Shown: positions 14,926 through 48,400 of the stretch, piece by piece
Layout: every line of letters starts with the position of its first letter
Position numbering within the stretch: the stretch's first letter is position 1
Origin: Nitrospirota bacterium
GTDB lineage: Bacteria > Nitrospirota > UBA9217
Direction: 5' to 3'
NCBI GenBank assembly: GCA_963751455.1
Contig: CAVVUN010000006.1
Coordinates: 128,001-192,000, forward strand
DNA: 64,000 nt
The notes under the pieces: generated by a model
The model's database searches: none
Seen by the model: the letters and a program-made list of their open reading frames with translations, nothing else
Told to the model about the DNA's origin: nothing
Program-made: the position numbers and the translations under genes

Positions 14926-14975
14926 ATTCTATAGGTTTCCTGCAATCTGTTGTACTACCCGTTTGGGCAGGTAGT
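14926..14975 (-). promoter_or_regulatory. Regulon box 1 and -10 (TAGAAT)
   Basis: ACTACCCGTTTGGGCAG at 14954-14970; minus-strand -10 at 14926-14931, 22-bp spacing. Confidence 0.7.
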
Positions 14976-15069
14976 ATTCGGATTTCACAAAAAAAGTGGG
15001 GATGCGAGGAGCCGGTCCGGTTCCCTCATGCCGGGAGCATGGACCGGCCCTCGATCTTCGTCGCTCTTG

Positions 15070-15337
15070 CTAGTACAGCGTAAACATAATCGCTAATAGT
15101 TCCACGCAGTCATTCCGGTGCGCTTTACGGCGACCAAGCCAGAATCAAAAAGATTGAACCGCGAGGGCGCAAAGGACGCCAGGAAGGCTGACATAGTACG
15201 GGAATTTTGCTTTCCTCGCGTTCCTCGCTTGCACCCAGCGTTTCGACTGCGAATGCGGGAGTGCAGGGCGCGACTTCGCGGTAAATATTCTATGCCGTTT
15301 TGAGCCTGTATCAAAAATTACTTTTACAGTGCACTAG
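15070..15337 (+). mobile_element. MITE family B, copy 1 (CTAG-bounded), carrying a 41-bp insertion
   Basis: CTAGTACAGCGTAAA...TTTACAGTGCACTAG; homologous to 16542-16821. Confidence 0.75.
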
Positions 15338-16434
15338 GTCGTTGCGTATTTTCGATGGGACCTCTCACGGATCTCTTTCAGCAGAGACGCCTGTTTATCG
15401 CGCCTTTCCCGATCTGCCGGGTCTACTGCATCCAGGACCGCCTCCTTGAGACGGTCATTTTCTCTCGTAAACGCCTGGAGCTGCTCGCTCGTGAACGCGA
15501 TCTCCTTGCCCGGCTGCACGAAAATCCTTGGATATCCCAGTTCATCGAGAACCGGACCAGCCACCGATTCGAATATCATAATGTCTTCCTTACCGGCTTC
15601 CTGGAGGAACTTGCGGGTATTTTCCCGCATTACCGGCTTCGTCAGATTGCTCCACAGTTCCGATGCCCCGGCGGTACTCCTGGCCTCGCCGCCGTTCGCA
15701 TACTCGAGCATTTGCGGCCGGTATCCGGCGCCGATGAATGAGCACAGTTTGCGACAGGTTTGCTCCGGATGCCGCGTCAACTCCTCGTAACTGACGCTCA
15801 TGAACCGGCTCCGATCGACCATTCCGGAGATAGCGAGTGCGAGTTTCTGAGTAGCCGTCCATTCCCGGGCGATGTGGTAGAAATGTTTTTCTCCGACCAC
15901 GGCTTTCCGGAAGGAGACAGCAACGTCGCGTCCGTCGCGATAGAGATAGATGTATCGCGGATCTTCGAAATGGAAATCGATATCATGAAAATAATTGATG
16001 TTCGCGAGGCTTTTGCAGCACCAGGTTCTTGCCCCCTGGGATTCCGCGTACATGTCGTACAGAGCTCCGTGGATTGCAACCAGCGCCTGTCTGGGCATGG
16101 AGAGCACCTGGGCCGCATGCACGGGATCGACCGGGAGCGACCGCTCCGCCACCTCGACCCGATCAAGGCTGACGCCGGCCCAGGCCACGGGATTCAGTTC
16201 GACGAGCCTGCAGACGTCGTCCACCAGTTGGTTGAACGCGTCCTCCCGGGTCAGCTCGCCGTACAGGGGCAGAACCGTCATCATCCGCTGCAGAATGTGC
16301 GGAGGGTGCGGCGCCGCGATCTCCGGGAGCTGATTCAGCATCAGGCGAAGCAGGTTTGAACCGGACCGTTGCGTACCGATCATGAAAATTGGATGCATAC
16401 TGTTATTTCCTCCTTGATTGCGAGAGTTGGTCAT
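15334..16434 (-). CDS. Sulfotransferase (Sulfotransfer_3)
   Basis: PIF.IG..RSGS.LLR.ML (5'-PSB), RDGRDVA.S (3'-PB), YE.L...P. Confidence 0.9.
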   Translation of the reverse strand: MTNSRNQGGNNSMHPIFMIGTQRSGSNLLRLMLNQLPEIAAPHPPHILQRMMTVLPLYGELTREDAFNQLVDDVCRLVELNPVAWAGVSLDRVEVAERSLPVDPVHAAQVLSMPRQALVAIHGALYDMYAESQGARTWCCKSLANINYFHDIDFHFEDPRYIYLYRDGRDVAVSFRKAVVGEKHFYHIAREWTATQKLALAISGMVDRSRFMSVSYEELTRHPEQTCRKLCSFIGAGYRPQMLEYANGGEARSTAGASELWSNLTKPVMRENTRKFLQEAGKEDIMIFESVAGPVLDELGYPRIFVQPGKEIAFTSEQLQAFTRENDRLKEAVLDAVDPADRERRDKQASLLKEIRERSHRKYATT

Positions 16435-16541
16435 TTGTTAGTCATTCCGGGCTTGCGGCAAAACAATAATTTCGTCATTCCCGCGAAAGCTGGAATCCAG
16501 TGTTTCAAAGGAAAGTCGCTGGATATTGGGCGATGAATCTT

Positions 16542-16821
16542 CTAGTACAACGTAAACCTAGTTGTTAATAGTTCCACGACGTCATTACGGTGTGCTTTAA
16601 GCCAACAAGCCGGAACTAAAAAGATTGAACCGCGAGGGCGCAAAGGTCGCCAGGAAGGCAATACTATCCTGTGGCATATTACGGGAATTTCGCTTTCCTC
16701 GCGTTCCTCGCGACTTCGCGGTAAATGTTCCTGCCGTTTTGAGAGGAATTCGATTTGTAACTGACTACTGGACCCGGCTAAAGGTGCAATACAATCAAGA
16801 ATTAGTTTTACAGTGCACTAG
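16542..16821 (+). mobile_element. MITE family B, copy 2
   Basis: CTAGTACAACGTAAACCTAGTTGTT ... AAGAATTAGTTTTACAGTGCACTAG, 25-bp imperfect TIR. Confidence 0.75.
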
Positions 16822-16856
16822 TATCTTTGTCTCCCGGCGCAGGCTGAAGCCTGCGG

Positions 16857-17663
16857 CTACACACCGGCCGATCCCGGGCTGAAAGCGAGGGACTCCACGG
16901 CGCGGGGCTGCGAAGCGACAAAAAAAGGATTGATCAGCTCCTGCTTGTTATAGCGCACCGGAAGGCCGCTTTCGGACTCGACGACCCGTCCTCCGGCCTC
17001 CTCTACGATGATCTGTCCCGCAGCCGTGTCCCACTCCATGGTCGGCCCCAGCCGCGGATAGATATCGGCTGCCCCTTCCGCGACGAGACAGAACTTCAGG
17101 GAGCTTCCGCGGGAAACAAACTGTACTTCCCCGTATCGGTCTCTTACGCGATCCACGTACTCAGCCAGCTGCGGGGTGCCGTGCGACCTGCTCCCCACAA
17201 CAACAAGGCCTTCCCTCCGGTTCGATACCCGGAGCCTTTTTGTGCCTTCCCGATCGAGCTTGAACGCCCCTCCGCCTTTCTGTGCGTAGTACAGCACGCC
17301 GCTGACCGGCACATAGATAACGCCGAGCACGGGCCGGTCCCGATGGATGAGCGCTATATTCACGGTGAATTCCCCGTTCCGGCTGATGAATTCTTTGGTG
17401 CCGTCCAACGGATCGACCAGCCAGTAATATTCCCAGTCCTTACGCTCTTCATAGGGAACATGTCTGCCCTCTTCGCTCATGACGGGAAAGGCAAACTCCT
17501 TGCTCAATTCGGCGGAAAGGATTTCGTGAGACCGGCGGTCGGCGAGGGTCAAAGGACTTCTGTCCTCTTTCCGCTCGACCGCGAAGTCCGAATTGTACAC
17601 CTTCAGAATCGCATCCCCTGCTGCCACCGCAGCAGGTATCAGAACCGACATAGTTACAGTCAT
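16857..17663 (-). CDS. cysQ: 3'(2'),5'-bisphosphate nucleotidase
   Basis: SPLT.AD, SEE, W.VDPLDGTKEF, GSSLKFC.VAEG.AD.YPR.GPT.EWDTAAG. Confidence 0.95.
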   Translation of the reverse strand: MTVTMSVLIPAAVAAGDAILKVYNSDFAVERKEDRSPLTLADRRSHEILSAELSKEFAFPVMSEEGRHVPYEERKDWEYYWLVDPLDGTKEFISRNGEFTVNIALIHRDRPVLGVIYVPVSGVLYYAQKGGGAFKLDREGTKRLRVSNRREGLVVVGSRSHGTPQLAEYVDRVRDRYGEVQFVSRGSSLKFCLVAEGAADIYPRLGPTMEWDTAAGQIIVEEAGGRVVESESGLPVRYNKQELINPFFVASQPRAVESLAFSPGSAGV

Positions 17664-17706
17664 AGGCACTCCTTGAAATAAGAGGTTATTAGACTTAGCT
17701 TTCGCT

Positions 17707-17912
17707 TTTCCAGACACCCCTGCATCCCGCGAACAGCGTCCGTGCTTTACATGACCGGCAGCAGGGACGGTAAATCACAAACCATGCATGTGCGTGCGAA
17801 GCGCAGCGAAGCTCAGCACTCTGAACCAAACTGAAAGTACACGTACAATCGAAATTTCACTGGCATGTCTGCACGGCGATGTGAGCGGCGGTGCAGAAAA
17901 AAATCAAGGATC
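17707..17912 (-). repeat. Repeat family C, copy A (about 200 bp, structured)
   Basis: Homologous to 19802-19998 and 41404-41686; core GTGATTTACCG..TGCTGCC..CATGTAAAGCACGGAC. Confidence 0.75.
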
Positions 17913-17978
17913 CTGAACAGCCTGGCATGAAGTAAAGATCTTATTTCTTTTCACCTCCCCTTCGCGTCCTGATCTCGG

Positions 17979-19145
17979 CTAATAGAACAGGACGCCTGCA
18001 ACGCCGGCGATCGGTATGACCCACGCTGTTTCCACTTTGAACTTCAGCAACGCGACCAGCGCCGCCGCAAAAATTGCGATTGAGACCAAATTCGGTTGGG
18101 CTGTCCTGGCGATGACGACTACGGCCGCGGTTATCATGCCGAGCACGCCGGACCGGATGCCGCGCAGGGCCGCAAGGACCGGGACCGATTGTTTGATCCG
18201 GTCCAGAAACCGGGTGCAGAGGAGCATGACGACGGCAGGCGGTCCGAACATGCCTGCTGTTGCAGCAACAGCGCCCAAGAGCCCCGCGACCTTGTACCCG
18301 ATGAAAACGGAACTGATGAGGATAGGGCCGGGCATTATCTGGCCGAGGGCGATGCCATCCAGGAATTCCTTGCGCGTGACCCATCCGTATCCGTCCACCA
18401 CGACCTGCTGCATGAGCGGAATAAAGACATAACCGCCGCCGAACAGGAGCAGGCTCATGCTTCCGAACGTTGCGAAGAGCTTTCCGGCGACCGCTATGTT
18501 CGTTCCCATCAAGGGCATTGACAGGGCGGGCGATAATGCATTCAGTCGTATTCCGTTCCGTGCGGTCCGATCTCCAGCGACACTTGCCGTTGCGGCCTGT
18601 TCGCCCGGGGCCGTTCCTTGCCTGAAGAGCAGCCATCCGAGCACTGCGCTCACCCCGATGATCCCAACCGTAGTAAAGAAGCCGCGGACCATGATCAGGC
18701 ACAGGCAGGAAGCAGCTGCGATAAGGCCTTCCGGCAAGGTCCTTGTCGTTTTCCTGGCCATGTTCCAGGCTGCGGCCAGAACGACGGCCGCGACTGCCGG
18801 AATAAAACCGTTGAAGAGCTTGCCGACAGCCGGGACCGAGCCCCAGCGAAAATAGGCATCGGTCAGGAGTAGCATCAGCAGAAACGACGGCATCATGACC
18901 GCTGTCGCAGCCACGGCAGCGCCTGCCCAGCCGCGGATCCGGTACCCGGTATATGCCACGGTATTTACGGCAACGGGCCCGGGAAGAATGGTCGCGAGCG
19001 AAATTCCGTCGAGCATGTCGTCCTGGCTCAGGAGCTTCCTCCGTTCGACCGCGTAGCTCTGCACCTGAGCGATGAGGGCCATGAAGCCGCCGAAGCCGGT
19101 GCTTCCTATTTTCAGGAACAGTTTAAAGAGTTGCCACAGGGTCAT
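17979..19145 (-). CDS. chrA: Long-chain CHR family (chromate/sulfate) transporter
   Basis: Two FGG..PGP repeats (F.KIG..GFGG; LLFGGGY..; GQ..PGP). Confidence 0.92.
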   Translation of the reverse strand: MTLWQLFKLFLKIGSTGFGGFMALIAQVQSYAVERRKLLSQDDMLDGISLATILPGPVAVNTVAYTGYRIRGWAGAAVAATAVMMPSFLLMLLLTDAYFRWGSVPAVGKLFNGFIPAVAAVVLAAAWNMARKTTRTLPEGLIAAASCLCLIMVRGFFTTVGIIGVSAVLGWLLFRQGTAPGEQAATASVAGDRTARNGIRLNALSPALSMPLMGTNIAVAGKLFATFGSMSLLLFGGGYVFIPLMQQVVVDGYGWVTRKEFLDGIALGQIMPGPILISSVFIGYKVAGLLGAVAATAGMFGPPAVVMLLCTRFLDRIKQSVPVLAALRGIRSGVLGMITAAVVVIARTAQPNLVSIAIFAAALVALLKFKVETAWVIPIAGVAGVLFY

Positions 19146-19695
19146 GCTGCCTCCTTTCGACCGGCACATCGAGGTAACCGCAGGATGAAAGGTGCCCCAA
19201 TATCCGCTCTGCCGACTGGCGCGGCGTTTCGTGCACCGTATCGATCGTCATTTCCGGACCCACGGGCGGCTCATAGGGATCGTCCAGCCCGGTGAAATTC
19301 GGCCTCTTCCCGTTCCTCGCTTCCTTCCACATGCCCTTTACGTCCCGGCTTTCGCAGATGTTCGCTTCGGTGCTTACCCATACTTCAACGAAATCCCGGC
19401 CGATCATGCTCCGTACCTCTTCACGCGGCTTACGATAGGGCGAAACCAGGGAACAGATCACTGCGGCTCCGTGCGAGGTTAGCAATTCAGCGATATGCCC
19501 CACGCGCGTAATGTTCGTGGCGCGGTCGCTCTTGCTGAAGCCGAGCTCTTTTGAAAGCCAGGGACGAACGACGTCTCCGTCCAGAAGCGTTACTTTCCGA
19601 CCGCGGCCCCGCAGCATGGATATGAGCTCCAGCGCGATCGTCGTCTTTCCCGAACACGGGAGACCCGTCAGCCAAACACAGAATCCTTTTTGCAT
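19123..19695 (-). CDS. cysC: Adenylyl-sulfate (APS) kinase
   Basis: W.TGL..SGKTTIA, LDGD.VR, SPY, RD.KG, FTG.DDPYE.P. Confidence 0.95.
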   Translation of the reverse strand: MQKGFCVWLTGLPCSGKTTIALELISMLRGRGRKVTLLDGDVVRPWLSKELGFSKSDRATNITRVGHIAELLTSHGAAVICSLVSPYRKPREEVRSMIGRDFVEVWVSTEANICESRDVKGMWKEARNGKRPNFTGLDDPYEPPVGPEMTIDTVHETPRQSAERILGHLSSCGYLDVPVERRQHDPVATL

Positions 19696-19801
19696 TGTTA
19701 TGCCCTCCTTCGTTTTTTGTCGTAGCAGCCCGGTTTCTACACATAAAAAAGGCTCTTCTCCAAGCAAGTGAATGAATTATAAGGAGCATCACGATGTACG
19801 A

Positions 19802-19998
19802 GATCCTTGATTTCTTTCTGCACCGCCGTTCACAGGTCCGCGCAGACATGACAGGATATCTCTTATTAGCCGAAGCTATTTTGGGCCGCTCATCGCGCTG
19901 ATGCTTCGCAACGCGCATGCATGATTTGTGATTTACCGTCCCTGCTGCCGGTCATGTAAAGCACGGACCTATTCACGGGATGCAGGCGCCTCTGGAAA
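19802..19998 (+). repeat. Repeat family C, copy B
   Basis: Inverted relative to copy A; the two copies bracket chrA-cysC. Confidence 0.75.
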
Positions 19999-20092
19999 TG
20001 CAAAACAAAAACAAGCGAAGAGCCCCCAAAAGAATTAAAGCGTGATCACCCAGAGACGAATCAAAAACTCCACTCATCAAGGAGAAGACCAT

Positions 20093-20131: not shown

Positions 20132-20254
20132 ACCGATAAAGGATATGTCCCGCAGCAAAGTACGAGGCTGGAAAACAAAAAGCCGGGGCAATGTGCCCCG
20201 GCTTAAGACGAGAATTGTTGTGCGGTAGAGAACGGTTGGTTCAAGAGCGAAGAA

Positions 20255-20590
20255 TCATTCTGTTGACGCATCCGGGCAAAGAGTCCGGTACGAGGCAACA
20301 GGCCGGTGCTGAAGCAGCCCTTGTTTTATCGCAAGCGCCCGGCAGCATTCCTGCTCGAGGATCTCCGAGACGGACTGGCCTGTTTCCGTAACCAGACCCT
20401 TTGCCTCTTCAGGAAGCGCGAATGCGGAAACCTCCTTAATGACTCCTTGTTCAGCTCTCTTCCAGATCTCATTCGTCCATGACGCTAAACGCTTGTCTAA
20501 TTCTTCTTTAAACCTCTCGGGATCCACACCTCTAAGCGCCGAGAGATACGCAAGTCGTCGTTTCTTTCTTCGGTCCTTTGCTTTTCCCAT
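20255..20590 (-). CDS. Hypothetical protein
   Basis: 111-aa ORF with AGGGGG RBS; basic N-terminus. Confidence 0.55.
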   Translation of the reverse strand: MGKAKDRRKKRRLAYLSALRGVDPERFKEELDKRLASWTNEIWKRAEQGVIKEVSAFALPEEAKGLVTETGQSVSEILEQECCRALAIKQGLLQHRPVASYRTLCPDASTE

Positions 20591-20801
20591 GTGACCCCCC
20601 TATTGAGTCGAACGATGTCTGTCGTCTTTGCAAGGGGACCTAATCGGGCTTTCGCCTTTTCGGCTATCGGTATGCCGGGTCAAGCTATGCGACCGTTTCC
20701 AGCATTACTTTTTATATTTGATCCAGTCGTTGCGCTGATATCGGTTACAGCTGATTCACCTTCTCATTCAGCGCAGAATGATCCAATTGTTCTCCTTTCC
20801 T

Positions 20802-20860
20802 GTGGAGCCCCCTGGCAGGAACCGGAGGCTCCCTATAAATGTCGCGACATCCCGCCGCAG
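20802..20860 (+). repeat. Repeat family D (REP/IS200-IS605-end-like), partial
   Basis: GTGGAGCCC..GGCAGGA.CCGGAGGCTCCC, shared with 49521-49629 and 44566-44762. Confidence 0.6.
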
Positions 20861-20974: not shown

Positions 20975-21019
20975 ATTATAGCCAAGGCTTGCGAAGCAGA
21001 GTACTACCCGAATAGGTAG
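20975..21019 (-). promoter_or_regulatory. Regulon box 2 and -10 (TATAAT)
   Basis: ACTACCCGAATAGGTAG at 21003-21019; TATAAT at 20975-20980 (minus), 22-bp spacing. Confidence 0.65.
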
Positions 21020-21312
21020 GGTCGAATGATGGCGTATATCTCTGGCCATCAACCAATAAAATCAGGAATTTAAGGGAAGACATCACGGGGGGGGCAATGG
21101 CCAGCTGGTCGTGATCAGAGTGGTCAAGCGGATCAAGGAAATTAAGGAAAGAACCACCGAGGTATTGTTTGAGTTTTCCGGAGTTGAAACGCCGCACAAC
21201 CGGCTACCGGATTGGACTGCCAGAAGAATTTCAGCTTTTCGGACTGCTCGATTGTTTTTAAACCGATTAATGATCTGTTGCTTCTTCATGCTTTAAGAAT
21301 CTACGAGCACAA

Positions 21313-36382: not shown

Positions 36383-37105
36383 TTAAATCTCGGGCTCCCA
36401 GCTGAGGTCGCCCGCCATTTCCCACTGAACAAAATTTCTGATCACCTGTCTCGCGTCTTCAGGCATATCATTAAAACGGAGGCCCATGCCCGGTTCGAAT
36501 TCAATCCTGCCTTCGAGGCGGGCGGTCCTGACCACAACTGCTTCCAGTTTTATCGTTGTTACGTCATGGGGCAAACTGTACCTGATATGCAGGATTGTGC
36601 CTTCGGGGAGCGGAATCGGGGTCCGAAGATACATTCCTCCCTCAGAAAGATTTATGCAGGTAAGTTCATCTTCAGGAGCGCCTTCCTCGATCGTTACCCT
36701 GAACTTGACGGAAATTCTTGGATCGTTTCTCGGTTCCTTGCAAAGACGGCCGAGAACACGGAAAGCGAGCGCAACGTCAACCGGTTTTGCAATGATCGCA
36801 GCGCACCCCGAGGAGATTAATCTTTCTTTTTTTTCCGTATTTTCCTCGGCAGTGAAAAGTACGAGGGGGAAATCCTTCACTGCCGGATCACGTCTGAGCA
36901 GAGAAATCGATTTCTGAAGAGCCTGCCCGGGCAGGTCGCCGTCAAGGATTATCAGCTCGAACCTGTTTTCCCCGGCAAGAACGACAGCCTCTTCCGCCGT
37001 TTTTGCCAGTATCGGTTTGTACCAAAGCCGCTTCATCAGAATACTTAGATCCATCTGGCCGTAAGCGGTGTGACAGACTATCAAAACAGTTTTTCCCGTA
37101 AACAT
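36383..37105 (-). CDS. Pseudo-receiver plus PilZ domain protein (c-di-GMP effector)
   Basis: REC-like N-terminus (IILD, KP) lacking the acidic pocket; PilZ R..PR and NLSEGG motifs. Confidence 0.85.
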   Translation of the reverse strand: MFTGKTVLIVCHTAYGQMDLSILMKRLWYKPILAKTAEEAVVLAGENRFELIILDGDLPGQALQKSISLLRRDPAVKDFPLVLFTAEENTEKKERLISSGCAAIIAKPVDVALAFRVLGRLCKEPRNDPRISVKFRVTIEEGAPEDELTCINLSEGGMYLRTPIPLPEGTILHIRYSLPHDVTTIKLEAVVVRTARLEGRIEFEPGMGLRFNDMPEDARQVIRNFVQWEMAGDLSWEPEI

Positions 37106-37130: not shown

Positions 37131-40100
37131 CTATGCCTCATAGCCAAGCTGCCGTATAAAGAGCGCTGCTATACTCGGGTCAAAATCCACTTCGCTCTTA
37201 TCTCTTAAATACTGCATTACGTTCTCTTTACTCCATGCGGGACGGTATGGCCGGTCGGAGCTTAATGCGTCCCAGACATCTACAACCGAAAAGATACGCG
37301 CTGCAAGCGGTATTTTTTCTCCTTTAAGTCCTTCAGGATACCCGGTCCCGTCCCATTTTTCATGATGACGTAAGGGTATATCGAGCGCAGGCCGTAAAAA
37401 AGCGATCGGCGAGAGAAGATCGTGCGCAAAAACAGGGTGCTTTCGCATTATGATCCATTCCTCTTCCGAGAGCTTCCCCGGCTTCAGAAGAATATGGTCG
37501 GGAATTCCCATTTTCCCGATGTCATGCAGGAGCGATCCTCTCCGGATGTGGACAAGCATATCCTCTCTTGTACCCATCTCACGGGCGATCTTTACGGTCA
37601 TGTCCGTGACCCTCCGGGAATGCCCTTCCGTTTCCTTGTCGCGCAGATCGAGCGCCCGGGACCAACCTTCGATGGTTGCATCGTATGCAAGGGCGAGTTC
37701 GTCATTGGCATGCTGTAAATCGCCGAAGAGCGAAGCCATATCTATCGCAATCGCCGCCTGCTGTGCCAATGCTTCGAAAAATTCGAGCCACGGCTTATCA
37801 GGCGTCAGGGGTCTCCGGTTTAAGACTTCGAGAACACCCTTCACCTGCCCTTTGATGACGAGCGGTGCAACATGATGGGAAACAAACCTTTCTCCCGTGA
37901 GCTGGCTCACATGGGCGCACATGGTGTGACCGGGAACGGCCTCTGGTACGCTGACCACGGTCCGTTCAAGCGCTGCGCGTCCAGCGCATCCCTCGCCCAG
38001 TTTTATTCTTGACTGTTCGATGTCCCGGGTCCGGAACCCGTGACCTGCGGCGTACGTCAGAGTGCGTGAATGAGGATTGAGCAGAAGTACAGCTGCCGCG
38101 TCGGCCTGAAGTTCCTTTGAAACGTGGGCAAGCAGCACGTTCAGCGTTACTCGCATATCCAGGCTGGAGCTGATCGCAATATCGATCTCATGCAGGGCCT
38201 GCAGGTGGTGCATCTGCTGCAAAGCCTGCTCGTGAAGGGTCAAACGGCGTACTGCAATGGCCGCAATTTCTCCGATCGCCGTTAGCAGCCTCACCCCCTC
38301 TTGCTTGATCGTCTTCCTGCATCCGATCATGATCGCGCCTATCGTCCTTTCTTCAGCAATCAGCGGAACGCATGCAACGGAGTTCAGTTTGTTGATCGCT
38401 TCCGGCCGGACTATCCGGGAGTCGTTCAAAAAATCGTCGCTCGAATAGGCTTTGCCGCCGGTGATAACGTGTCCCAGTACGCCTTCACCCGGCGGCAACC
38501 GGCGTCCCGTCCATTCGCTCAACTCGCCCCAACCCAACTCGACGAGGGTTTCTCCGGTAGCCGGTTCGAGAATGCCTATTGCGGCAGCCTCAATATCCAG
38601 AGACTCTACCGTATGAACCAGGATCAAGGGAAACTGATCCGCACGCGTGGAAGCCGACCGCAAGGCAATGCTTAACCGCGAAATCGATTCCAGTTCGCGC
38701 TCGCGCTGTTTCCGGTTCGTGATGTTATCGAATACCGCGATAAAACGCTGCTTTTCAGTGCTGTACGCGGAGACGGACAACCATGTTTCGAGGGGATCCA
38801 GGTATATTTCAAACTTTTCCCCCTTGCCGGTCAACGACACCCTGCCGTAAATTTCAAACAATTGCGGATAGGCCTCGCGTATACCCGGTATCACTTCGGT
38901 CACTTTTTTCCCGATCACGTTCGTCAGCCCGGTCAATCCTTCGAAGGCGGCGTTGACCTCGATATAGACGAAGTCCTTCGGCCGGCCGTCTTCAAAAAGC
39001 ATCTGACAATAAGCAAATCCCTCGAGCATGTTATCGAAGAGCGAGTGATAGCGATTTTCGCTCGCGCGCAATGTTTTTTCGCTCTGAATTCGGGTGGCAA
39101 TTTCGGACTCGAGTTCTTCCTTCGCGACAACAGCCTGCTCGGTGAATCGCTTGGTTTCACTCGTCCGCTTCATGATCGAAAGAATGTAGGCCGTCAATAG
39201 ACCTGTGATAACAAGCCCGCCTCCCAGCACGTCCCACGAATGACCGTACCGTCGACCGGCCAGGTACCCGGGTGCGGGAGTGGCAAGAAAAGTCCATTTT
39301 CTGCCTGCTATTTCGATTGTTTTGTCGTAATGCACCCCTTTCCGAAGGAAAGCTCTTTCATCGCCCGCATTGTCTGAAAGGGGAGTTCGAATCGACGGAG
39401 GATATGCATACAACAGGCGACTGTCTTGCTGCGAGGTCTCATCGTAGAGACGGATTGCGATATTTTGCCGGTCGAGATAAGACAAATATTTCTCTATCAG
39501 GCCGTTAATCGAGAAAACGCCCGCCACGTAGCCGCTCAAACGTTCACGACGGGCTTCCAGCGAATCAGGAACGGCTCCTTCCCCGTAGAGTGGGTGAAAA
39601 ACAGTAAACAAGAAACCCGCGTCAACCTTCTGAACCAGTGTCGATCCGGAAATGACAACCATCGTCCCGTTATCGCTGGATTTTTGCAGCGCATCTCGAC
39701 GAGTCGGATCAGAGGCGATATCGAAACCGAACGCTGCCTTGTTATCTGAATAGGGCTCGACGAAATAAGCGGGAAAGTATTCGCGGCGCTTTCCTGCCCG
39801 CGTCATGCCCCCCTGTGCCTTGAGTTCCGTGAGCTCAAACCCGGGCAGCCCCTCCTGCCTTGCTGCCGACTCATATCCGGCTCTCCGGGAATACGGCACG
39901 CGGGGAACCCACGCTAAAGCCTGTACCGCGGGATTATGCCGCATAAATGGCTGAACAAAGGCGTGAAACTCCTTCCGGGTGATCATGTCGGCATGGACAT
40001 AAAAAGCAGCGAGGGCTTCCATCTGTTGGAGGCTTTCCTCGATGCCTATCCGCAATGCTTCAATCAGTTCATCCGACTTGCTGTTGAATTCCAACTGGAG

Positions 40101-40271
40101 GCGGTCTCGGCGGTCATTACGGGAGAGAATAAACAGCGCAACGGATATCGCCACTCCCAAACAAACAACCAGCACTAACAGGACGTATTGATGTCTAAAG
40201 AGTTTATTGAATATGCCGGGAGTTTTGCCGGTCAAGCCGGTTTTACTATTTTGGCTCTTTCTGAAGTCCAT
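37131..40271 (-). CDS. CHASE-PAS-GAF-GAF-HD-GYP cyclic-dinucleotide phosphodiesterase
   Basis: CHASE (W.PRV, EP...N..A.GFD); D.ET.GHS.RV, LHDIGK, HHEKWDGTGYP, VDVWDAL.SDRPYR. Confidence 0.93.
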   Translation of the reverse strand: MDFRKSQNSKTGLTGKTPGIFNKLFRHQYVLLVLVVCLGVAISVALFILSRNDRRDRLQLEFNSKSDELIEALRIGIEESLQQMEALAAFYVHADMITRKEFHAFVQPFMRHNPAVQALAWVPRVPYSRRAGYESAARQEGLPGFELTELKAQGGMTRAGKRREYFPAYFVEPYSDNKAAFGFDIASDPTRRDALQKSSDNGTMVVISGSTLVQKVDAGFLFTVFHPLYGEGAVPDSLEARRERLSGYVAGVFSINGLIEKYLSYLDRQNIAIRLYDETSQQDSRLLYAYPPSIRTPLSDNAGDERAFLRKGVHYDKTIEIAGRKWTFLATPAPGYLAGRRYGHSWDVLGGGLVITGLLTAYILSIMKRTSETKRFTEQAVVAKEELESEIATRIQSEKTLRASENRYHSLFDNMLEGFAYCQMLFEDGRPKDFVYIEVNAAFEGLTGLTNVIGKKVTEVIPGIREAYPQLFEIYGRVSLTGKGEKFEIYLDPLETWLSVSAYSTEKQRFIAVFDNITNRKQRERELESISRLSIALRSASTRADQFPLILVHTVESLDIEAAAIGILEPATGETLVELGWGELSEWTGRRLPPGEGVLGHVITGGKAYSSDDFLNDSRIVRPEAINKLNSVACVPLIAEERTIGAIMIGCRKTIKQEGVRLLTAIGEIAAIAVRRLTLHEQALQQMHHLQALHEIDIAISSSLDMRVTLNVLLAHVSKELQADAAAVLLLNPHSRTLTYAAGHGFRTRDIEQSRIKLGEGCAGRAALERTVVSVPEAVPGHTMCAHVSQLTGERFVSHHVAPLVIKGQVKGVLEVLNRRPLTPDKPWLEFFEALAQQAAIAIDMASLFGDLQHANDELALAYDATIEGWSRALDLRDKETEGHSRRVTDMTVKIAREMGTREDMLVHIRRGSLLHDIGKMGIPDHILLKPGKLSEEEWIIMRKHPVFAHDLLSPIAFLRPALDIPLRHHEKWDGTGYPEGLKGEKIPLAARIFSVVDVWDALSSDRPYRPAWSKENVMQYLRDKSEVDFDPSIAALFIRQLGYEA

Positions 40272-40522: not shown

Positions 40523-41350
40523 TTACAGTTGGATCAAGTTGTGTTCGAGCGCAGCCATAATGGCCTGCGACCGGTTCGCGACGTTCAGTTTCTGAAATAT
40601 GTTCTTCAAATGGAATTTGACGGTGTCCTGTGTGATCTCCAGGATGGAGGCTATCTCCCAGTTGTTCTTTCCCTCCTTGACCCAGACGAGTATCTCCTTT
40701 TCGCGGACCGTAAGGGAAACAGTTTCACTCTTGTCGTTTAACACGCGGTTCAGCTGGGGGACGACGACCTCCAGGATCGCATTCTGGCACTCGACCTCGG
40801 CGGCCTTTACCGTGATATGCAGCTGCGTGGCAATGGCTTTGAGGTCCTTGTCCTCTGCAAGCAACCCGAGGACCTCACGCTGGTTTTTATCGATCCGCTC
40901 CGGAATCTTCAGCTCCTTCTGCCGCAGACGCGCGGCGTACTCCTTGATCAGGACCCCGGCTACCCGGTTGCTGAGATAGCCCCCTCCGGCGGACACGCGG
41001 TTGATCGCGCTGATCACTTCCCGGAACGCGCAGTCCTTGAGCAGATAGCCCACTGCCCCTGCCTTGAGCATTTCGAGCACCATGCGCTTGTCCAGGTGCA
41101 TCGAGAGCGCGATCACCTTGACGGCGGGATTTGCGGCCTTGATCCGGCTGGTCGCGTCGATCCCGTTCACCCCGGGCATCGAGATGTCCATGATGACGAT
41201 GTCGGGGCGCAGTTTTCCCGAAAGCTCGATCGCCGCTTCGCCGTCCTCGGCCTCGGCTAAGACCCTCATGTGCGTCTGCTCGGCGATCAGCATTCTCAGC
41301 CCCTCGCGCAGCAGCTTATGATCGTCGGCAAGAAGTATCCGTATATCCAC
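40523..41350 (-). CDS. NarL-type response regulator with two LuxR-type HTH domains
   Basis: LADDH, MDISMP, GYLLK; degenerate HTH, then LTVREKEILVWVKEGKNNWEIASIL..TVKFHLKN..KL.V.NR.QA. Confidence 0.9.
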   Translation of the reverse strand: MDIRILLADDHKLLREGLRMLIAEQTHMRVLAEAEDGEAAIELSGKLRPDIVIMDISMPGVNGIDATSRIKAANPAVKVIALSMHLDKRMVLEMLKAGAVGYLLKDCAFREVISAINRVSAGGGYLSNRVAGVLIKEYAARLRQKELKIPERIDKNQREVLGLLAEDKDLKAIATQLHITVKAAEVECQNAILEVVVPQLNRVLNDKSETVSLTVREKEILVWVKEGKNNWEIASILEITQDTVKFHLKNIFQKLNVANRSQAIMAALEHNLIQL

Positions 41351-41403
41351 AGAGCCCCCCTCTATTCCGGGTCTTTTCCTTTAAGGAGCTTCAGGAAGTG
41401 CAA

Positions 41404-41686
41404 GATCCTTGTTTTTTTTCTGCACCGCGGTTCTCATCGCCGCGCAGACATGCCAGTTATATTTCTATTTTACTTGTCGCTACAGCCGCCCATAGCGCTA
41501 ATTGCTACGCATAGCCTGCATTCGCGCTTGGCACTCATAACCGCTGGCCACAAGCCGCGCAGGCAAGATTCGTGATTTACCGATCTTGCTGCCAGGCATG
41601 TAAAGCACGGACGCTGCTCACGCCCTACTCTCGCGCTGCGCACTCGAAGTCGTTGGGTGCAGGCGGGATGCAGGGGTGTCGGGAAA
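41404..41686 (+). repeat. Repeat family C, copy C, with two nested micro-elements
   Basis: Same ends as copies A and B; insertions at 41514-41564 and 41623-41663. Confidence 0.75.
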
Positions 41687-41709: not shown

Positions 41710-43571
41710 TCAATTTTCTTTTCCCTGCAGCGGCGCGGTCAGCACTACCCTGGTCCCCCGGCCCGGGGCGCTCTCGATCGCGCAGGCAGCCGCCCAATCG
41801 TTTCAGCCGCTCCTGTACCAGAAAAACCCGAACCCGCTGACCTTGCCCGCGTTCATGTCCGCGTCGAAACCCGTGCCGTTGTCCTCGACGGCAATGTTGA
41901 TCAGCCGGCCTTTGGCGGAGACAGAGATGCGCACCTCCGTCAGCCCGGGAATGCTTGACCGCGTTCAGGAGCAGCTCCCGCACGCACCGGAACAGGAGAT
42001 AGCGCGTTTCTCCCTGCACCTGCTTGGACTCGCCGTCATCTTCGACTCTGATCAGTATTCCGTGGGTCCTCTGAAAGGCCTCGGCCAGCGCATCAAGGGC
42101 GGGTTTGAAGCCAAGCTCGGTCAGGATCGGCGGATTCAGCTCGATCGTCAGGGAGCGGGTGTACTGAATGGTCTGCTCCAGCGTCTCTCCGATCGTCCCC
42201 AGGATCCGCTGCGTCTCGGGGCGGCGGCAGCATTTGCTGGAGTCTTCCGACCATGAAGGTCATGACCGCCAGGTTCTGCCCGACATAATCGTGCAGGTCC
42301 GAAGCGATCAGGTGCCGCTCCCGCTCCTCCACGCGCGACTCGAGGGCGGACATTTCCGAGGCAACCGAGAACAACTGATTCTGGTAGAGCCGGATCTTCT
42401 CTTCCATCCCCCTGCGCTCCGTCTGGTCCCGGGCGATCACGAGCGCAGCCCTGCTGCCGTTGAACGGGAAAAGGGCGATCGCTATCTCTGCCTCGACCGG
42501 CGGACCCGTCCAGCTGGCGGTACCGGACGCTGGAGAGGGGCAATGGCGGCCCCTTCCTCCTCGACCTGCAGGAGGCGCGCTTCCATCATGGACCGGCAGC
42601 TCTCATCGATGAAGTCCGCGGCCGGCCTTCCCATCACCTGCAGCGGATCGTCAGCGCCCAGCGAGCTTTAACCCGGAAGGGTTGACGAAAACGATGCGGT
42701 CCTGATGCTGCACGTAAGATGGCGTCGGGAGAGAGCTCCACCAGGCGGCGATACCGCTCCTCGCTCTCCCGAAGGGAACGCTCCGCCTCGCTGCGCGCGC
42801 GCACCATTTCGTTAAAGCTCGCGGCAAGGTTCCCTACCTCGTCAACCGGTTTCGACGGGTACGGGCTCGACCGGAAGCCCCATGCCCAGGGCTTTCACCT
42901 TGTCGGTAAGGTTCACGAGGGGGGCGATTACCTTGCGAATGGCGAAATAAATAAGCGTCGTGCTCAGCAAGAATGAAGATAACCGTAATCAGCACGTTCT
43001 GCTTTATGACCGAAACGATCTCCTGGTGGTAGCTTTCCTTGCTCAGCACGATCCGGGCATAGCCGATCACCTTCGGGTGATGGCCCTTTCCCTTCATGCC
43101 GAAATAGAGCGATTCGTCACGGGCGCCGCCTGAGTCGAGCAGTACTGGCTTGATCAGCTCCAGGGTTTCGGATGTTTCCCGGACCGCGGGAAAGCGCTCC
43201 TCTTCTCCGTACTTCGGCTCCGGGGGCCGCCATTCGTCGAGCGCGGGTTGTCCTTTCCGCTCTTCGTGGATCTTCCGGAACCGGTTGTTATAGATGGATA
43301 CTGCGATGACATCGTGGAGACTGAGGATGTCCCGGGCCGCCTCCCGCAGCATTTTGGGGTTCTCGGCGAAGACCCCCAGCATGGAACTGCGGGACAGGAG
43401 TTCGACCAGCATTTCTCCCTGCTCCCGGAGGCCGGTCTTGGTCTTGTCCTCTTCGCGAAGCACGGCAAAAACGGTAAATACGGACAGCACGACGATGATG
43501 ATGCCGATGAACGCAGACAGCATCTTGACGCCCAGGCTTTTCCGCAGCGCATGGCCGATCTTCCTAGTCAA
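41710..43571 (-). CDS. Membrane HAMP/PAS HisKA_3 (NarX-type) sensor kinase, several frameshifts
   Basis: TM-periplasmic-TM; EERER..IA.DLHD.VGQ.L; FRCVRELL.NAVKHS; G.G F and S.PG.GT.V boxes. Confidence 0.8.
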
Positions 43572-44488
43572 TCCCTTTCACCCTCCGCATGGTCTCATCC
43601 GTGATCGCAAGCCCCATTTTCGCGGCCACGTTCCTGTTTACGGTGAGAAGCGACGTTCGGGCATACTCGCGGACGGAGCCCGATCCCGTTTTCAATCTGT
43701 TCGCCAACTCGCCGACCTGCACCCCGATATCATAGGGATCGAGGTCAAGGGAGGCCACGGCGCCCATGTCCACATATTTTCGGGAAAAGGTGAAGATGGG
43801 AACTGCCCGCTGAAAGGAAAAACGAAGCAGCAGATCGACATTCTCCGTGGTGACCACACTCGGGTCCGGCAGCATCCAGAAGATGTCGATCCTGTCCTGC
43901 ATGGCGGAGAGCGCTGCCGGCAGCCTGGAAGGATCATGGATCTGCTGGGAAATCAGTTCGAGTCCCGCAGCCCGCGCAGCCTTCACGGCGTCTTCAAAAA
44001 AGGCTCCGGTATTCCGGGGATCGTAGATCACGCCGATCCTTTTCTTGCCCGGGAAAATGTCGTGCATGGCTGCCAGATGGCTTGCCGGCGAAACATCCAT
44101 GCTTATACCGGATATATTCGGTCCCTGGCAGCTGAAGGGCTTCGGAAGGGATTGCCATTGCGTAGATGAGGGGAAGGGTCCTGATCTCTTTCAGCTTCTT
44201 CAGGCCAAGCGTGCCGACCGTGATGACGATGTCAGGCGATTTCGCCAGCACCCTTTCAGGCCCGTCATCGTCGCGAAGCGTCAATTCCCGCACAGAGCAA
44301 TTACACGCGTCCCTCAGCCCGCGCACGACTTCGAGGTGGGGCTGCAGCTGGGCGCTTCTGACCACGACCACACGGCACGGCTCGGCTGCGATAGCAGGAA
44401 TGGAAACTCCGACCACGAGCACAGCGACGAACAGCGCGATCGAACGAACCGTATGGGGGAACTGTGATAGTGATGAGAGTACCATCAT
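43564..44488 (-). CDS. ABC_sub_bind-type periplasmic binding protein with no ABC transporter (frameshift near 44120)
   Basis: Signal peptide; RIGV.YDP, D..WMLPD.SV, G.Q...LA...L, L.VN..A..MG. Confidence 0.8.
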
Positions 44489-44781: not shown

Positions 44782-46076
44782 CTACAGGCCGAATTCCAGG
44801 TCCTGCGCGACGAACGGGCCCAGCGTCCTGTCGAAGTATTCTTTCTGGCAATTGAGGCCTTCCATGGTCCCGGACCTCAACAACTGCATGTACCTGCAGC
44901 CGCCGAAGCAGAGCGGCAGATAGCTGCATTCCAGGCATCGGTCGTTCTTCCAGGAATCCAGCCCGTGCGAGGCCCGGTACTCCCGCACCCCGGTCCTCAC
45001 GTCGCCTACGCAGCACTCTTTCCTGCCGATCAGGCCCGGACATTTGTACAGCGTGCCGTCGTAGTTCACGACAAAGCTGTCCCGGAAGTCGAGCAGACAG
45101 GGAGAGGGCAAGACCTTCGGGGCGCGGTAGCCCCGTTTCAGCACCTCTCTGCGCAGGAAGAGCGCGGCCTCGCTGATCCACGGCTCGTTATTGGAGGTGC
45201 AGCCGTCGTGAAAATCCGGCGTCCCGAACTCGCTGCTTTCCTGCAAAACCGGGTCGAACTTGACGACCGGGACCTTCTGCGGGGTAAGTCCGTTTGCGAT
45301 GAGATGGTCGAGCAGGAGCGGGAACCGGTCATACTCGTCGCGGGTATAATTGCCGCCGATCTGGATACGGATCAGTTCGCGAGACGTCCTTGATGTTCCG
45401 GAGGATGACATCGAACGAGCCAATGCCCGATCGAAAAGGACGGAACCTGTTGTGGATGTCCTCCGGTCCGTCAAGCGTGACCTTGGCGCCCGTCAGTCCG
45501 AGCGGGACCAGTTTCCGGACCACTTCGGGCGTGAGCAGGGTCCCGTTGGTCACGAGCCCGAATTCGTAGCGCAGACCCCTTTCGGCAGCGTACGTGCCGA
45601 GCTTTTCCGAGATGCTCGATGATCCGCGCCGATGCTCAGCAGCGGTTCGCCGCCGTAAAAGGTGACCTCGATGGTCTTCTTCCCGGTCAGGTCCCTGCTT
45701 CTTGACGAAGGCAATGAATGCGTCGGCGGTCTCGTCGGACAGGTACCATTTCCCTTTTCTTTGGCCTTCGAAGCAGTAGGTGCAGGCGAGATTGCAGTCG
45801 AGGTTGAGGACCAGGATGATCCGGACCGACGTATCTGAGAGCGTTCAGTTCGCCGATGTAGCCGAGCATTTCCTGTTTTTCCCGCTCGGGGTCGTCGGTC
45901 ACGAGCCCGAGGCTGCCCAGGGATTCGCGTTCCTCCGGGGAAAGGCGGCCGCTTTCGATGTCTGCGATCAGACCCGAGGGCACGAGGACCGCCGAGGCGT
46001 TGGCGGTCGAGAACAGGACCTGGGAGCCGTCACCCTGCGCGGACGGGAATATTTTCGTATATCGGGACAAATTCAT
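44782..46076 (-). CDS. Radical SAM/SPASM peptide maturase, geopeptide type (several frameshifts)
   Basis: MNLSRYTKIFP N-terminus; LDCNLACTYCFEG (CX3CX2C); FYGGEPL; TNG.LL; VTLDG..IH...R; SPASM C..DG.LYKC..C..C..LP.C.GGC..C. Confidence 0.88.
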
Positions 46077-46107: not shown

Positions 46108-46145
46108 AAAAAAAGGGAGGGAGAGCCTGTTCTGTTCTCCCTCCC
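46108..46145 (-). terminator. Intrinsic terminator/stabilising hairpin between peptide and maturase
   Basis: Minus strand GGGAGGGAGA-loop-TCTCCCTCCC followed by a T tract. Confidence 0.7.
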
Positions 46146-46154
46146 AAGCACTTT

Positions 46155-46256
46155 CTATCTTGAAACGTAAGGAGCGATCGAGCCGTAACAACAGAACATT
46201 GCCGCCACTTCTCTTTTATCCATGCCTCTTTTCAGTACTACGATGCGATTCTGCAT
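46155..46256 (-). CDS. 33-aa RiPP precursor peptide MQNRIVVLKRGMDKREVAAMFCCYGSIAPYVSR (geopeptide-like)
   Basis: Hand translation (below the ORF-track cut-off); purine-rich RBS AAGGGGGGGAG; I.VL..G leader and CC core; directly upstream of the rSAM gene. Confidence 0.8.
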   Translation of the reverse strand: MQNRIVVLKRGMDKREVAAMFCCYGSIAPYVSR

Positions 46257-46294
46257 GTTCTCCCCCCCCTTCTCTTTAGAGTTACATATCGCTC

Positions 46295-48176
46295 TTAAAA
46301 GCTATACCGGATGCCTGCCTCCGACCACCGGCCGGGGTTCTTATACAAGCGCTATCGGCATATTGAGCCCCGTTAAAGATATTGTGAACATCGACAAAGA
46401 GTTCGAGCGAGCTGTCGTCATCGGAATAGAGTGTCCTTGGCAGCATGGACGTCAACGATCATGGCCTTATATTTACCCTCATTGAATGCGTCCGAATTCC
46501 AGTAAATATAATGACCTGTCACGAGCATTTTCAGAGTGGCATCGTCATAGTGAAGTCCGAGGTCATAGGTCCGCTGAGGGGTATTCGGGACCGTCCTGCC
46601 GGTTTCAGCGTCCCTGGTGTTCATGAAGGCAGCTCCTGCTGAAAGGAACGTCAAATGGACAGGCTTGCTCCTCAGTTCGATCTCGAGTCCCTGCCTTCGT
46701 GCCTTGCCTTCGTTCACGGCCATGAACTGGGGCCCGGGCAACATGTTCGTTTACGATCAGATCGGCTAACATCATGCCGGTACACATCCATCTTCAGCCA
46801 TACAAAGGGCACTGCGGTTGTCTCAACGCCTGCCTGGTAGGACTTGACCCGTTCCATCCGCAGGTCCGGGTTCGGCACGGTGAATTGGTTGCCCCCGAAG
46901 GTTGCCGAGAGCGGAGGAACATTGAAGCCGCGGGCAGCATAGGTCCGGAGAAGAACGGTATCGAGCGGCTTGTAGGTCATACCGAGACTCGGGCTGTTGA
47001 AATCTCCGTTCGTATCGGTCTCGTCATGCCGGATGCCGGGTGTGAACGAGAACCGGTTGACGGTGATCGTATCGTTCAGGTAGAAGGCGTGCTTTCTCTG
47101 AAAATGCTCCCTGCCGGCCAGCGTGCTCGATTCCAGTTTTCTTGAATCCGCATCCGCACCGAGGACGACGTTGTGTTCCTGCCGCTTCCAGACCAGTTTT
47201 GCGCTCGAGCCGTATCCCGTGTCCTCGTAATAGTCATGCGAAAGTTGAGAACCGGTGCTTGCCTGGTAATTGTAGTAATCGTAGTCCTGACGAATATTCC
47301 AGAAACCGAGATTGAACGTCGTCTCCTTGCTGATCGCCGAGTTCAGCGAAAGGCTCGATCGTACTGTTTCAGTCTTGTTGTCGACGAACAGGTCATAGTC
47401 CGGGATCTCCACGACGCCCCTGTCGAACCGGTCTATAGCTTGTGCTGAACAGGACCTGGGTGGAGTTCGTTATGTCGTAGGTGATCTTGCCGAATGCGTT
47501 GTTCCCGGAAAAATCGTTAAGCGGCCTGAATCCATCCGTCTCCAGCCGCCTGGCCGTAAGGTAGTAGCCCACACCGGTCGTCCTTCCCGGACGCTTCCAT
47601 CCTGAAGTCTCCGGTATTGGCCTTGCCGTACGACGCCGACACCATACCGTTCAACTCGTCGCTGCTTCCTGATTTGGTGATGATGTTGATGACGCCGCCG
47701 AGCGCCGAGCCCCAGGCCGAGGAGGCGGGGCCCTTGATGATCTCGATCTTCTCGATGTTCTGGACCGGGACCGACCCGACTTCCGCGACGGTATCGCTCA
47801 GGTTGTTCAGCGGGATGCCGTCCATGAAGACAGCGACGTGCCAGTTCTCGGAGCCCTGGATCAAGGCCTGTGCGATACTGCCCGGCCCTCCGGTCAGGAA
47901 AACCTGGACACCGGTCACCGTGTTCAATACGTCGGCCAGGGTGTGAGCGTTCATCAGTTTTATATCCTGTGCGGTGACGATCGTGACATTTTCCGCGGTT
48001 TGAGTCAGCGACTTCCGGCTTCTCGTTGAAGACTCGACATACAAGTTATCTTCGGTGAAATACATCAGAAGGAATTTATCATCTTCATCGGGTTTGCTGA
48101 GTACGGGACCTGCGAGCGCCAGCTGTACGCCGAGTAAAGCAATTACGAAAGCTGCCAGAATCCTGTGTTTTTTCAT
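46295..48176 (-). CDS. TonB-dependent outer-membrane receptor (several frameshifts)
   Basis: Signal peptide; plug motif IE.IEIIKGP.SS.WG.ALGGVINIITK; NPDL..E...SY..G; C-terminal ..GIRYSF*. Confidence 0.88.
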
Positions 48177-48354
48177 GGCCCTTTCCACCTGTAATGGTTA
48201 ATGAATCTGATAGCAATGCAATTTTATGTATGCAATTACAGGTGGAGTATAAGGAGGGAACCATCCCGTGTCAAGAAATTATCTCCGATCGTCCGGAAAA
48301 TAAACTGCTCTTCGCATGGATCGTGGGAGCCGCCGATATCTCTTAATATGGTTC

Positions 48355-48400
48355 ACTATAGTAAATTGATGCAGAAAATAACACTACCCGTTCGGGTAGT
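48355..48400 (-). promoter_or_regulatory. Regulon box 4 (perfect 7-bp arms) and -10 (TATAGT)
   Basis: ACTACCC-GTTC-GGGTAGT at 48383-48400; -10 at 48355-48360 (minus), 22-bp spacing. Confidence 0.75.

Follow-up and report, generated by a model that had tools for sequence, protein, structure and literature searches.

In the Vibrio fischeri luxI promoter, the lux box is an inverted repeat of 20 bp with its centre at -42.5 (PMC3376562). A palindromic box of the same type, that of NspR1, is known from Nitrospira; it was tested by reporter and gel shift, and it drives a signal synthase and an enzyme of cyclic di-GMP (c-di-GMP) metabolism (PMC8553950). Here, we examine a set of four palindromic boxes, each at the same distance from a -10-like element, in a 64,000-nucleotide (nt) stretch of the genome of a Nitrospirota bacterium (lineage UBA9217; GenBank assembly GCA_963751455.1, contig CAVVUN010000006.1, positions 128,001 to 192,000), hereafter the window, together with the geopeptide-type operon and the response regulator situated among them. 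From sequence comparison we consider it quite probable that the boxes are a conserved lux-type operator, read by the second helix-turn-helix unit (HTH2) of this regulator, which when phosphorylated would activate sigma70 promoters.

Like the lux box, the boxes of the window are inverted repeats that abut the predicted -35 position, and their centre, 31 nt upstream of the hexamer, would fall near -43; the same element stands upstream of luxI in four related loci, and its putative reader has a LuxR-type C-terminal HTH. Unlike the lux box, their arms are CTACCC/GGGTAG rather than ACCTGT/ACAGGT, and the likely reader is a response regulator controlled by phosphorylation. Two hallmarks of a lux box, an acyl-homoserine lactone (AHL) synthase as target and an autoinducer-binding protein as reader, were not encountered, as neither luxI nor a match to Autoind_bind (PF03472) was found in this genome. 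The NspR1 box belongs to the same phylum, and box 1 and box 2 of the window would serve targets comparable with its own; it is, however, of the ACCTGG...CCAGGT type and has an AHL-binding regulator, and the accessible part of its description contains neither a two-component system nor a peptide (PMC8553950).

The regulator resembles the NarL/FixJ family (NarL, VraR, LiaR, DesR) in its intact receiver, its HisKA_3 partner and its LuxR-type HTH, but it is about 275 amino acids (aa) long and has two HTH units, the first of them decayed. The operon that follows box 1 has the composition of a geopeptide system (TIGR04280), with a TonB receptor, a Cys-Cys peptide, a maturase, a binding protein and a kinase in one operon; within such systems, however, this regulator and box are confined to some of the loci. 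We found no published function or regulation of the geopeptide family (TIGR04280 and, as we take the second number to be, TIGR04229) in a search that had most subscription journals outside its coverage. Among other operons for ribosomally synthesized and post-translationally modified peptides (RiPPs), the accessible part of a review describes the streptococcal shp/rgg clusters as quorum-controlled radical S-adenosylmethionine (SAM) operons and lists an uncharacterised Parabacteroides cluster with a two-component system, a precursor, a radical SAM enzyme and a TonB receptor (PMC9389541). Our locus has in common with these the linkage of a radical SAM-modified peptide operon to a signalling module, but those clusters either rely on Rgg together with a separate peptide or contain an exporter that has a peptidase domain, and in that part of the review no lux-type box or DNA-binding domain derived from an AHL-LuxR protein is described for them (PMC9389541).

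Four boxes at a fixed distance from a -10 element

The original prediction, made from the letters of the window, was of four 18-bp boxes at an invariable distance from a -10 element, and in its boxes, its hexamers and its spacing it was accurate: all four lie on the minus strand and each is followed, after exactly 22 nt, by a TAnnnT hexamer.

48383..48400, minus strand: box 1, with perfect 8-bp arms, upstream of the TonB-peptide-radical SAM operon; matrix score 39.5 bits
48355..48360, minus strand: -10-like hexamer TATAGT, 22 nt past box 1; putative inducible promoter P1
40418..40435, minus strand: box 2, immediately 3' of the regulator gene; matrix score 29.7 bits
40390..40395, minus strand: -10-like hexamer TAAAAT of box 2; a weak -35 element, TAAACA, overlaps the final base of the box
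21003..21020, minus strand: box 3; matrix score 31.0 bits
20975..20980, minus strand: -10-like hexamer TATAAT of box 3
14954..14971, minus strand: box 4; matrix score 26.1 bits
14926..14931, minus strand: -10-like hexamer TAGAAT of box 4, 6 nt ahead of the ATG at 14919

The most symmetric box is, as had been claimed, the one at the TonB-peptide operon. The promoter of box 4 would have a leaderless geometry if the ATG at 14919 serves as the start, and at all four sites the -35 matches are weak (at most 4/6).

A scan of the whole 5.72-Mb genome with a symmetric consensus of the box yielded one perfect site, a second that has two mismatches and a further 16 that have three; since shuffled sequences gave 10.7 sites with three mismatches, sequence by itself does not set the two weaker boxes apart. 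Only the four sites of the window, among these 18 matches, have TAnnnT at +22, and at a local TAnnnT frequency of 0.027 the rough chance that four sites have one offset in common is about 5e-5. The position weight matrix scan with spacer and -10 element included, which had been suggested as a check, was run with a matrix built on 21 non-redundant sites from other genomes, this genome being excluded to avoid circularity. The four boxes of the window are the top four loci of the genome, with the scores listed above; the next unrelated locus has 12.5 bits, a value that no fifth site exceeds at spacer 22 in the genome-wide scan, and the maximum in three shuffled genomes was 14.8-16.4 bits. When the spacer was set to 20, 21, 23 or 24, the top score dropped from 39.5 to 20.8-30.5 bits. 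Box-only matches in nine relatives, collected with no condition on the -10 element, have TAnnnT at offset 22 in 17/40 orientations, and at every other offset from 0 to 44 in at most 3/40. In the 21 sites of other genomes the information content of the box is symmetric over 16 positions. The four boxes are confirmed as a real and conserved operator set, each separated from its -10 element by a constant 22 nt.

The sequence YGCA at spacer positions 10-13 is common to all four sites of the window; it was rejected as a part of the motif because it is not conserved in the 21 sites of other genomes, where its information is at most 0.14 bits. A sigma54 reading of the sites was likewise dropped, the GG-to-GC spacing being a misfit to what we take to be the sigma54 consensus.

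The candidate reader and its lux-type relatives

40523..41350, minus strand: response regulator with a receiver, a decayed NarL-type HTH1 and a conserved AHL-LuxR-type HTH2; likely reader of the box

It had been proposed that the box is the site of this regulator. Such binding, although predicted, is likely, and it is supported by co-occurrence across 64 genomes of the family, by the orthologous promoters and by the HTH repertoire of the genome itself, in which the regulator's domain is the only one of the eight LuxR-type HTH domains found to have a DTVKFHLK recognition helix. The two-HTH regulator occurs in 11 of the 64 family genomes, was found nowhere else among 401 genomes sampled from the phylum, and has about six single-stretch, full-profile representatives among the best 150 matches in a 50%-identity library; hence its family is small. 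A search of contigs that took the entire regulator as query brought up mainly generic NarL-type proteins. The strict pattern of box, 22 nt and TAnnnT is present in 8 of the 10 other genomes that have the regulator and in 1 of the 53 that do not, and its reversed control is present in 1 of the 64; relaxing the last base adds G016, G013 and G064 to the positive genomes. The box-only count across the family was uninformative as a test of presence, the reversed control being equally frequent.

A check named beforehand was the presence of the motif upstream of orthologous TonB/geopeptide operons. Among 28 geopeptide loci, nine have no TonB start on the contig and that of G017 was excluded because its gene begins at the contig edge. 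In the 18 usable loci the box stands upstream of the TonB gene in all five that have a two-HTH regulator, this one included, in four genera, and in none of the 13 that lack it, where the best match has at least five mismatches; these 13 negative promoters take in the paralogous operon on contig C1 of our genome and two paralogues of G063. As the surveyed genomes are kin and several are incomplete, the co-occurrence counts cannot be treated as independent trials. A nearly identical box promoter is situated, in G065, directly ahead of a regulator gene that has no neighbouring peptide operon, and for this reason autoregulation would be the constant feature of the system.

The receiver of the regulator is intact, D55, S83 and K105 being invariant and D9 and D10 nearly so. 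In a structure model (mean predicted local distance difference test score, pLDDT, 90) it is followed by a three-helix HTH1 (155-206) and a four-helix HTH2 (215-269); the match to PF00196 is confined to 212-267, and the protein differs from the NarL/FixJ definition in not having a single HTH. HTH2 has a mean identity of 0.62 and its recognition helix one of 0.71, against 0.31 and 0.24 for HTH1. Residues K245 and K249 of HTH2, which we presume to be equivalent to R206 and R210 of TraR, are invariant in 27 sequences. TraR contacts its DNA through these two arginines (bioRxiv 10.1101/2020.12.15.422598). HTH2 is 56% identical to the LuxR domains of G016 and G021, whereas its identity with the HTHs of the single-HTH regulators at other geopeptide loci is 26-34%, and in a tree of 62 columns it falls alongside these LuxRs within a clade with support of 100/94. 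The receiver and HTH1 parts of all 11 two-HTH proteins, by comparison, form one clade (95/87), nested in a further clade (95/90) the remainder of which consists of seven single-HTH geopeptide partners and one other protein. The best solved relative of HTH2 by sequence is the AHL receptor CviR, with VraR a close second. The fold matches of the regulator are single-HTH proteins of the NarL family, LiaR and VraR being the best, and every full-length fold match listed has a single HTH and does not exceed about 210 aa. The regulator's score against EpsA (TIGR03020), 78 bits, comes from the HTH only and is below the cut-off of 170. As far as these short trees show, the regulator is a chimera of a NarL-type receiver and HTH1 with an AHL-LuxR-type HTH2. 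The simplest reading, with donor and direction taken from an unrooted analysis, is that one fusion event placed an AHL-LuxR output domain under the control of a kinase.

The relationship to lux boxes extends to AHL synthase genes. Four genomes of the family have luxI. This box lies upstream of luxI in G016, in G021 and at the metagenome locus L327, with the hexamers GATAAT, AATAAT and GATAAT at +22, and also at the metagenome locus L330, where the hexamer is poor; the LuxR recognition helix of G016 and G021 is SQ[DN]TVK[FY]H. In G001 and G014, luxI has instead a ACCTGTCA-type (ACCTGT-type) box of 20 bp followed by 21 nt, and the LuxR helix is SERTVHFH. The distance from centre to hexamer is the same for that box and for those of the window. 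With the helix signature [DN]T[VI]K...K/R fixed before the scan, 100 further loci with LuxR-type HTHs were searched, and box and -10 element were found within 3 kb in 5 of the 15 that have the signature and in none of the 85 that do not. Another family of the phylum has the pattern in 21/76 genomes, and in 15 of 21 loci examined from that family the pattern comes immediately after a LuxR-solo gene whose helix is SLNT[VI]KFHLKN.

Because the same box precedes luxI in relatives, its lux-box geometry is more than an analogy. The class II lux-box arrangement that had been proposed for the window therefore stands with regard to spacing and is strengthened by the luxI promoters, whereas activation as such remains a prediction. 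Most likely the box is a lux-type activator site, the input of which would have been switched from AHL to a histidine kinase.

In the second family (f9), the loci L294-L307, L310 and L313 have the box and its -10 element after a LuxR-solo gene and before an open reading frame (ORF) of about 423 aa, as at L301:630-2925; in four other loci a similar ORF stands on one side of the box and a cytochrome P450-like gene on the other. The 423-aa ORF has no Pfam or NCBIfam match, and 16% of one Atlas cluster gives a weak lead towards nitroreductases; by analogy with luxI it could encode the synthase of an unknown autoinducer. The second geopeptide operon of G063 (L157, contig C6), a single-HTH one, has a ACCTGTCA-type lux box about 290 nt upstream of the TonB start and 21 nt before TATAAT, and some 30 kb from it L220:1255-1761 encodes a LuxR-type protein of 168 aa, which is shortened at its N-terminus and has a helix of the matching type. 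Geopeptide operons may thus have been wired to lux-type boxes twice.

A number of observations weigh against the regulator as reader of the box. The strict pattern is absent from two genomes that have the regulator, G022 (92% complete) and G017 (63%), and the looser pattern is present in G074 (84%), G013 (86%) and G064 (93%), where the reader was not found. The genomes are related to one another, and the patterns were loosened in the light of certain loci. The tree of HTH2 has only 62 columns, and its clade includes HTHs that lack the box or are untested for it. Ten of the 15 loci with the helix signature are boxless (eight of these HTHs are distant, at less than 80 bits, and two are on contigs shorter than 2.5 kb). 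Of the five positives, at least two seem to come from the organisms of G065 and G005, which had been counted already. Finally, palindromes with no -10 element at +22 occur in several relatives, some of which (G066, G018 and G074) have no two-HTH regulator; hence another protein may read similar sites there.

Such palindromes, some with extra TACCC, would be expected if the box were read by some other LuxR/NarL-family protein of the genome and if the clustering of the sites reflected local duplication of a promoter cassette. The TACCC half-site does resemble NarL-type heptamers, all four sites fall inside 34 kb, and the YGCA common to their spacers is not conserved in relatives. We nonetheless regard this explanation as highly improbable, for the remaining seven LuxR-type HTHs found here have different recognition helices (frameshifts could hide another), the paralogous operon on contig C1 has no box, and box plus -10 element tracks the type of helix across genomes and across unrelated N-terminal domains. 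At L225, L240, L244, L272 and L277 there are perfect or near-perfect palindromes with no -10 element at +22, some of them followed by more TACCC repeats, which are possibly a second class of site.

The peptide operon and its possible signal

46295..48188, minus strand: TonB-dependent receptor gene (PF07715, PF00593), 5 frameshifts, end approximate
46158..46256, minus strand: 32-aa precursor-like peptide with a basic leader and Cys-Cys; homologues at the equivalent position in related loci
46111..46148, minus strand: hairpin and T run past the peptide gene, terminator- or stabiliser-like; read from sequence, its loop of more than 8 nt being beyond the limit of the hairpin scan
44782..46076, minus strand: geopeptide-type radical SAM/SPASM maturase (TIGR04280), 4 frameshifts
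43564..44487, minus strand: ABC_sub_bind periplasmic binding protein (PF04392), 1 frameshift, start approximate
41710..43571, minus strand: sCache_4/HisKA_3 sensor kinase (PF09984, PF07730), 10 frameshifts, end approximate
48246..48274, minus strand: near-consensus sigma70 promoter TTGACA-17-TATACT; putative basal promoter P2, downstream of P1 and ahead of the TonB start

The matches of the maturase to TIGR04280 are broken up by the frameshifts (161, 289 and 56 bits; cut-off 400); its orthologues in G030, G023, G036 and G063 score 549-564 bits, and 21 of the 64 family genomes have a protein over the cut-off. The 32-aa peptide has no NCBIfam match; peptide cores differ between species and the Cys-Cys is conserved. 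The PF07730 match of the kinase includes the His box, and the kinase gene adjoins that of the regulator. Equivalents of P2 are present in G030, in G063 and in the single-HTH locus of G034. The two-HTH regulators are beside a peptide operon in 6 of 11 cases, are not in four, and in one lie at a contig edge. At L119, L160 and L165 the precursors have a long Lys/Ala-rich, histone-like leader ahead of the Cys-Cys core; at L120 (G034) the TonB receptor gene is interrupted by an insertion of about 1.5 kb; and in our own genome a second, intact and boxless geopeptide operon, which has a kinase of the HisKA type and another kind of regulator, is located at G000:C1:426000-433300.

These elements could be assembled as follows. 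A NarL-type regulator native to geopeptide loci would have gained the DNA-binding domain of an AHL-type LuxR, after which its own HTH decayed. The periplasmic binding protein and the HisKA_3 kinase would bring about phosphorylation of Asp55, and the phosphorylated regulator would use HTH2 to dimerise on the palindrome. If the hexamer is placed at -12 to -7, the box would occupy -52 to -35, its centre at about -43, and the bound regulator would recruit RNA polymerase to promoters whose weak -35 element overlaps the edge of the box. Receptor and peptide would then be expressed at a basal level from P2 and, on induction, from P1, and the remaining sites would alter c-di-GMP turnover and chemosensing, as well as sulfation in relatives. 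The least certain step is the last, in which the matured peptide would itself be the kinase's signal; such peptide autoinduction is a tentative proposal to which we would give somewhat less than an even chance. The positive feedback that had been envisaged for this operon is hence retained in part: positive autoregulation of the TonB-peptide operon is likely, but the peptide in the role of inducing signal stays conjectural.

Repression through overlap with the -35 element, or binding by the unphosphorylated regulator, would be the converse of this scheme. The box does touch the -35 position, and some LuxR-family proteins do repress from sites that overlap it. We consider this unlikely, because the weak -35 matches suit promoters that depend on an activator, the geometry is identical to that of the luxI promoters of relatives, and the strong separate promoter P2 lies downstream, beyond the reach of the box.

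The operon also provides arguments against the scheme. In this assembly its four-gene part is frameshifted 20 times. Five of the 11 two-HTH regulators were not seen beside a peptide operon, and three of the genomes concerned have no TIGR04280 match over the cut-off. No exporter or protease was recognised among the genes of the operon, the rest of the genome not having been searched. The hairpin past the peptide gene, together with repeats between the radical SAM, binding protein, kinase and regulator genes, may limit read-through from P1; as a similar hairpin follows the peptide gene in 10/10 loci compared, read-through to kinase and regulator is uncertain.

The frameshifts raise the question of whether the circuit is a relic here, with peptide operon and kinase reduced to pseudogenes and the boxes idle. 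The corresponding 10-kb bin has a coverage of 0.14 by ORFs of at least 300 aa, in the lowest 4% of 564 bins, and the regulator and HD-GYP genes are intact by contrast. Read error is nevertheless most likely and is favoured over decay because 19 of the 20 events are insertions of 1-2 nt and none produces an in-frame stop; moreover, the orthologues in G030, G023, G036 and G063 are open and the boxes and hexamers are intact, so that a relic seems highly improbable. An alternative genetic code, considered for the short ORFs, was rejected, the breaks being frameshifts without in-frame stops.

A more substantial competitor, which we would also place a little below even chances, retains the same regulator and box and has the kinase sense a cue other than cell density, either the metal-loaded or substrate-bound Cys-Cys peptide, taken in through the TonB receptor, or an unrelated small molecule bound by the ABC_sub_bind protein. 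Imported Cys-Cys peptides recall the siderophore- or methanobactin-like uptake loop, and a metal- or substrate-uptake loop fits the same operon anatomy. It is the TonB receptor that the most symmetric box would govern, the Cys-Cys of the peptide is conserved, PF04392 is a family that binds small molecules (the best NCBIfam match is a tryptophan-binding relative), and 5 of the 11 regulators were seen without a peptide operon. A density signal is favoured, in turn, by the derivation of output domain and box from AHL quorum-sensing loci, by the variation of peptide cores between species, as is frequent in signals, and by the putative targets, which are c-di-GMP, chemosensing and sulfation rather than metal genes. 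The probability of a non-density cue overlaps that of the preferred explanation, because the two differ only in the last step.

Other predicted targets and the significance of the circuit

37131..40271, minus strand: CHASE-PAS-GAF-GAF-HD-GYP phosphodiesterase, ATG with ribosome-binding site; putative target
36383..37105, minus strand: receiver-PilZ protein; putative co-target
10724..14919, minus strand: receiver-HisKA kinase, PhnD-like binding protein and chemoreceptor; predicted target operon, preceded by box 4
20255..20590, minus strand: 111-aa ORF of no known family, the first of such size past box 3
20180..20204, minus strand: terminator-like hairpin of 11 pairs with a T run, between box 3 and cysC
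15334..19695, minus strand: cysC, ChrA-type transporter, cysQ and sulfotransferase; box targets in relatives, doubtful here

The 20.9-kb region upstream of the sulfation genes had been named as the target of box 3. A link of the box to these genes holds for relatives, since in G063, G023, G019 and G036 the box is directly ahead of cysQ or sat-cysC, but in our genome the link is doubtful because the 1.28 kb between box 3 and the cysC start contain the 111-aa ORF, the terminator-like hairpin and a dispersed repeat. Hence box 3, at 21003, probably does not reach the sulfation genes here. The 111-aa ORF has no family match, and no homologue in the compared loci or elsewhere in the genome.

The dispersed repeat is a non-coding element of about 220 bp, resembling a miniature inverted-repeat transposable element (MITE) or a repetitive extragenic palindromic (REP) sequence, with dozens of matches at 70-80% identity; in the window it lies at about 19790-20010 and 41380-41620, and a shorter repeat at about 20795-20855. 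The 14 kb from about 21300 to 35700, which separate the PilZ gene from box 3, look like an insertion; read from their translations, they contain toxin-antitoxin-like, PIN-like, SNF2-helicase-like and small hypothetical ORFs. At L112:3765-3814 (G023), L031:15445-15494 (G063), L228 and L324:4641-4674 there are arrays of two to three overlapping tandem boxes with a 16-bp period, situated between divergent cysQ and PhnD or sulfotransferase genes; the right flank of box 4 is similar to the end of such an array (cysQ to PhnD/sulfotransferase) in G023 and G063. The genes cysQ, cysC or sat-cysC and sulfotransferase are found beside geopeptide operons with either type of regulator (L162, L163, L169 and 15334-19695 of the window), which suggests that a sulfated product, possibly the Tyr-containing peptide, may belong to the system.

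For the uncharacterised RiPP family TIGR04280 these results provide a concrete operator, a candidate reader and a regulon. Within one phylum, one DNA-binding domain and its box would be served by three inputs, an AHL LuxR beside luxI, a LuxR-solo and a two-component regulator, and this suggests a route for the rewiring of signalling circuits. With the box, its 22-nt spacer and a regulator of 275 aa defined, the question of the geopeptide as a signal becomes directly testable. It is conceivable, and we advance it tentatively, that the circuit is a Gram-negative peptide quorum sensing system that arose by domain capture, in which a radical SAM-modified peptide has replaced AHL as the input of a lux-type circuit; the peptide would enter through its own TonB receptor and be sensed by the binding protein and the kinase. 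If true, this would give the geopeptide family its first function.

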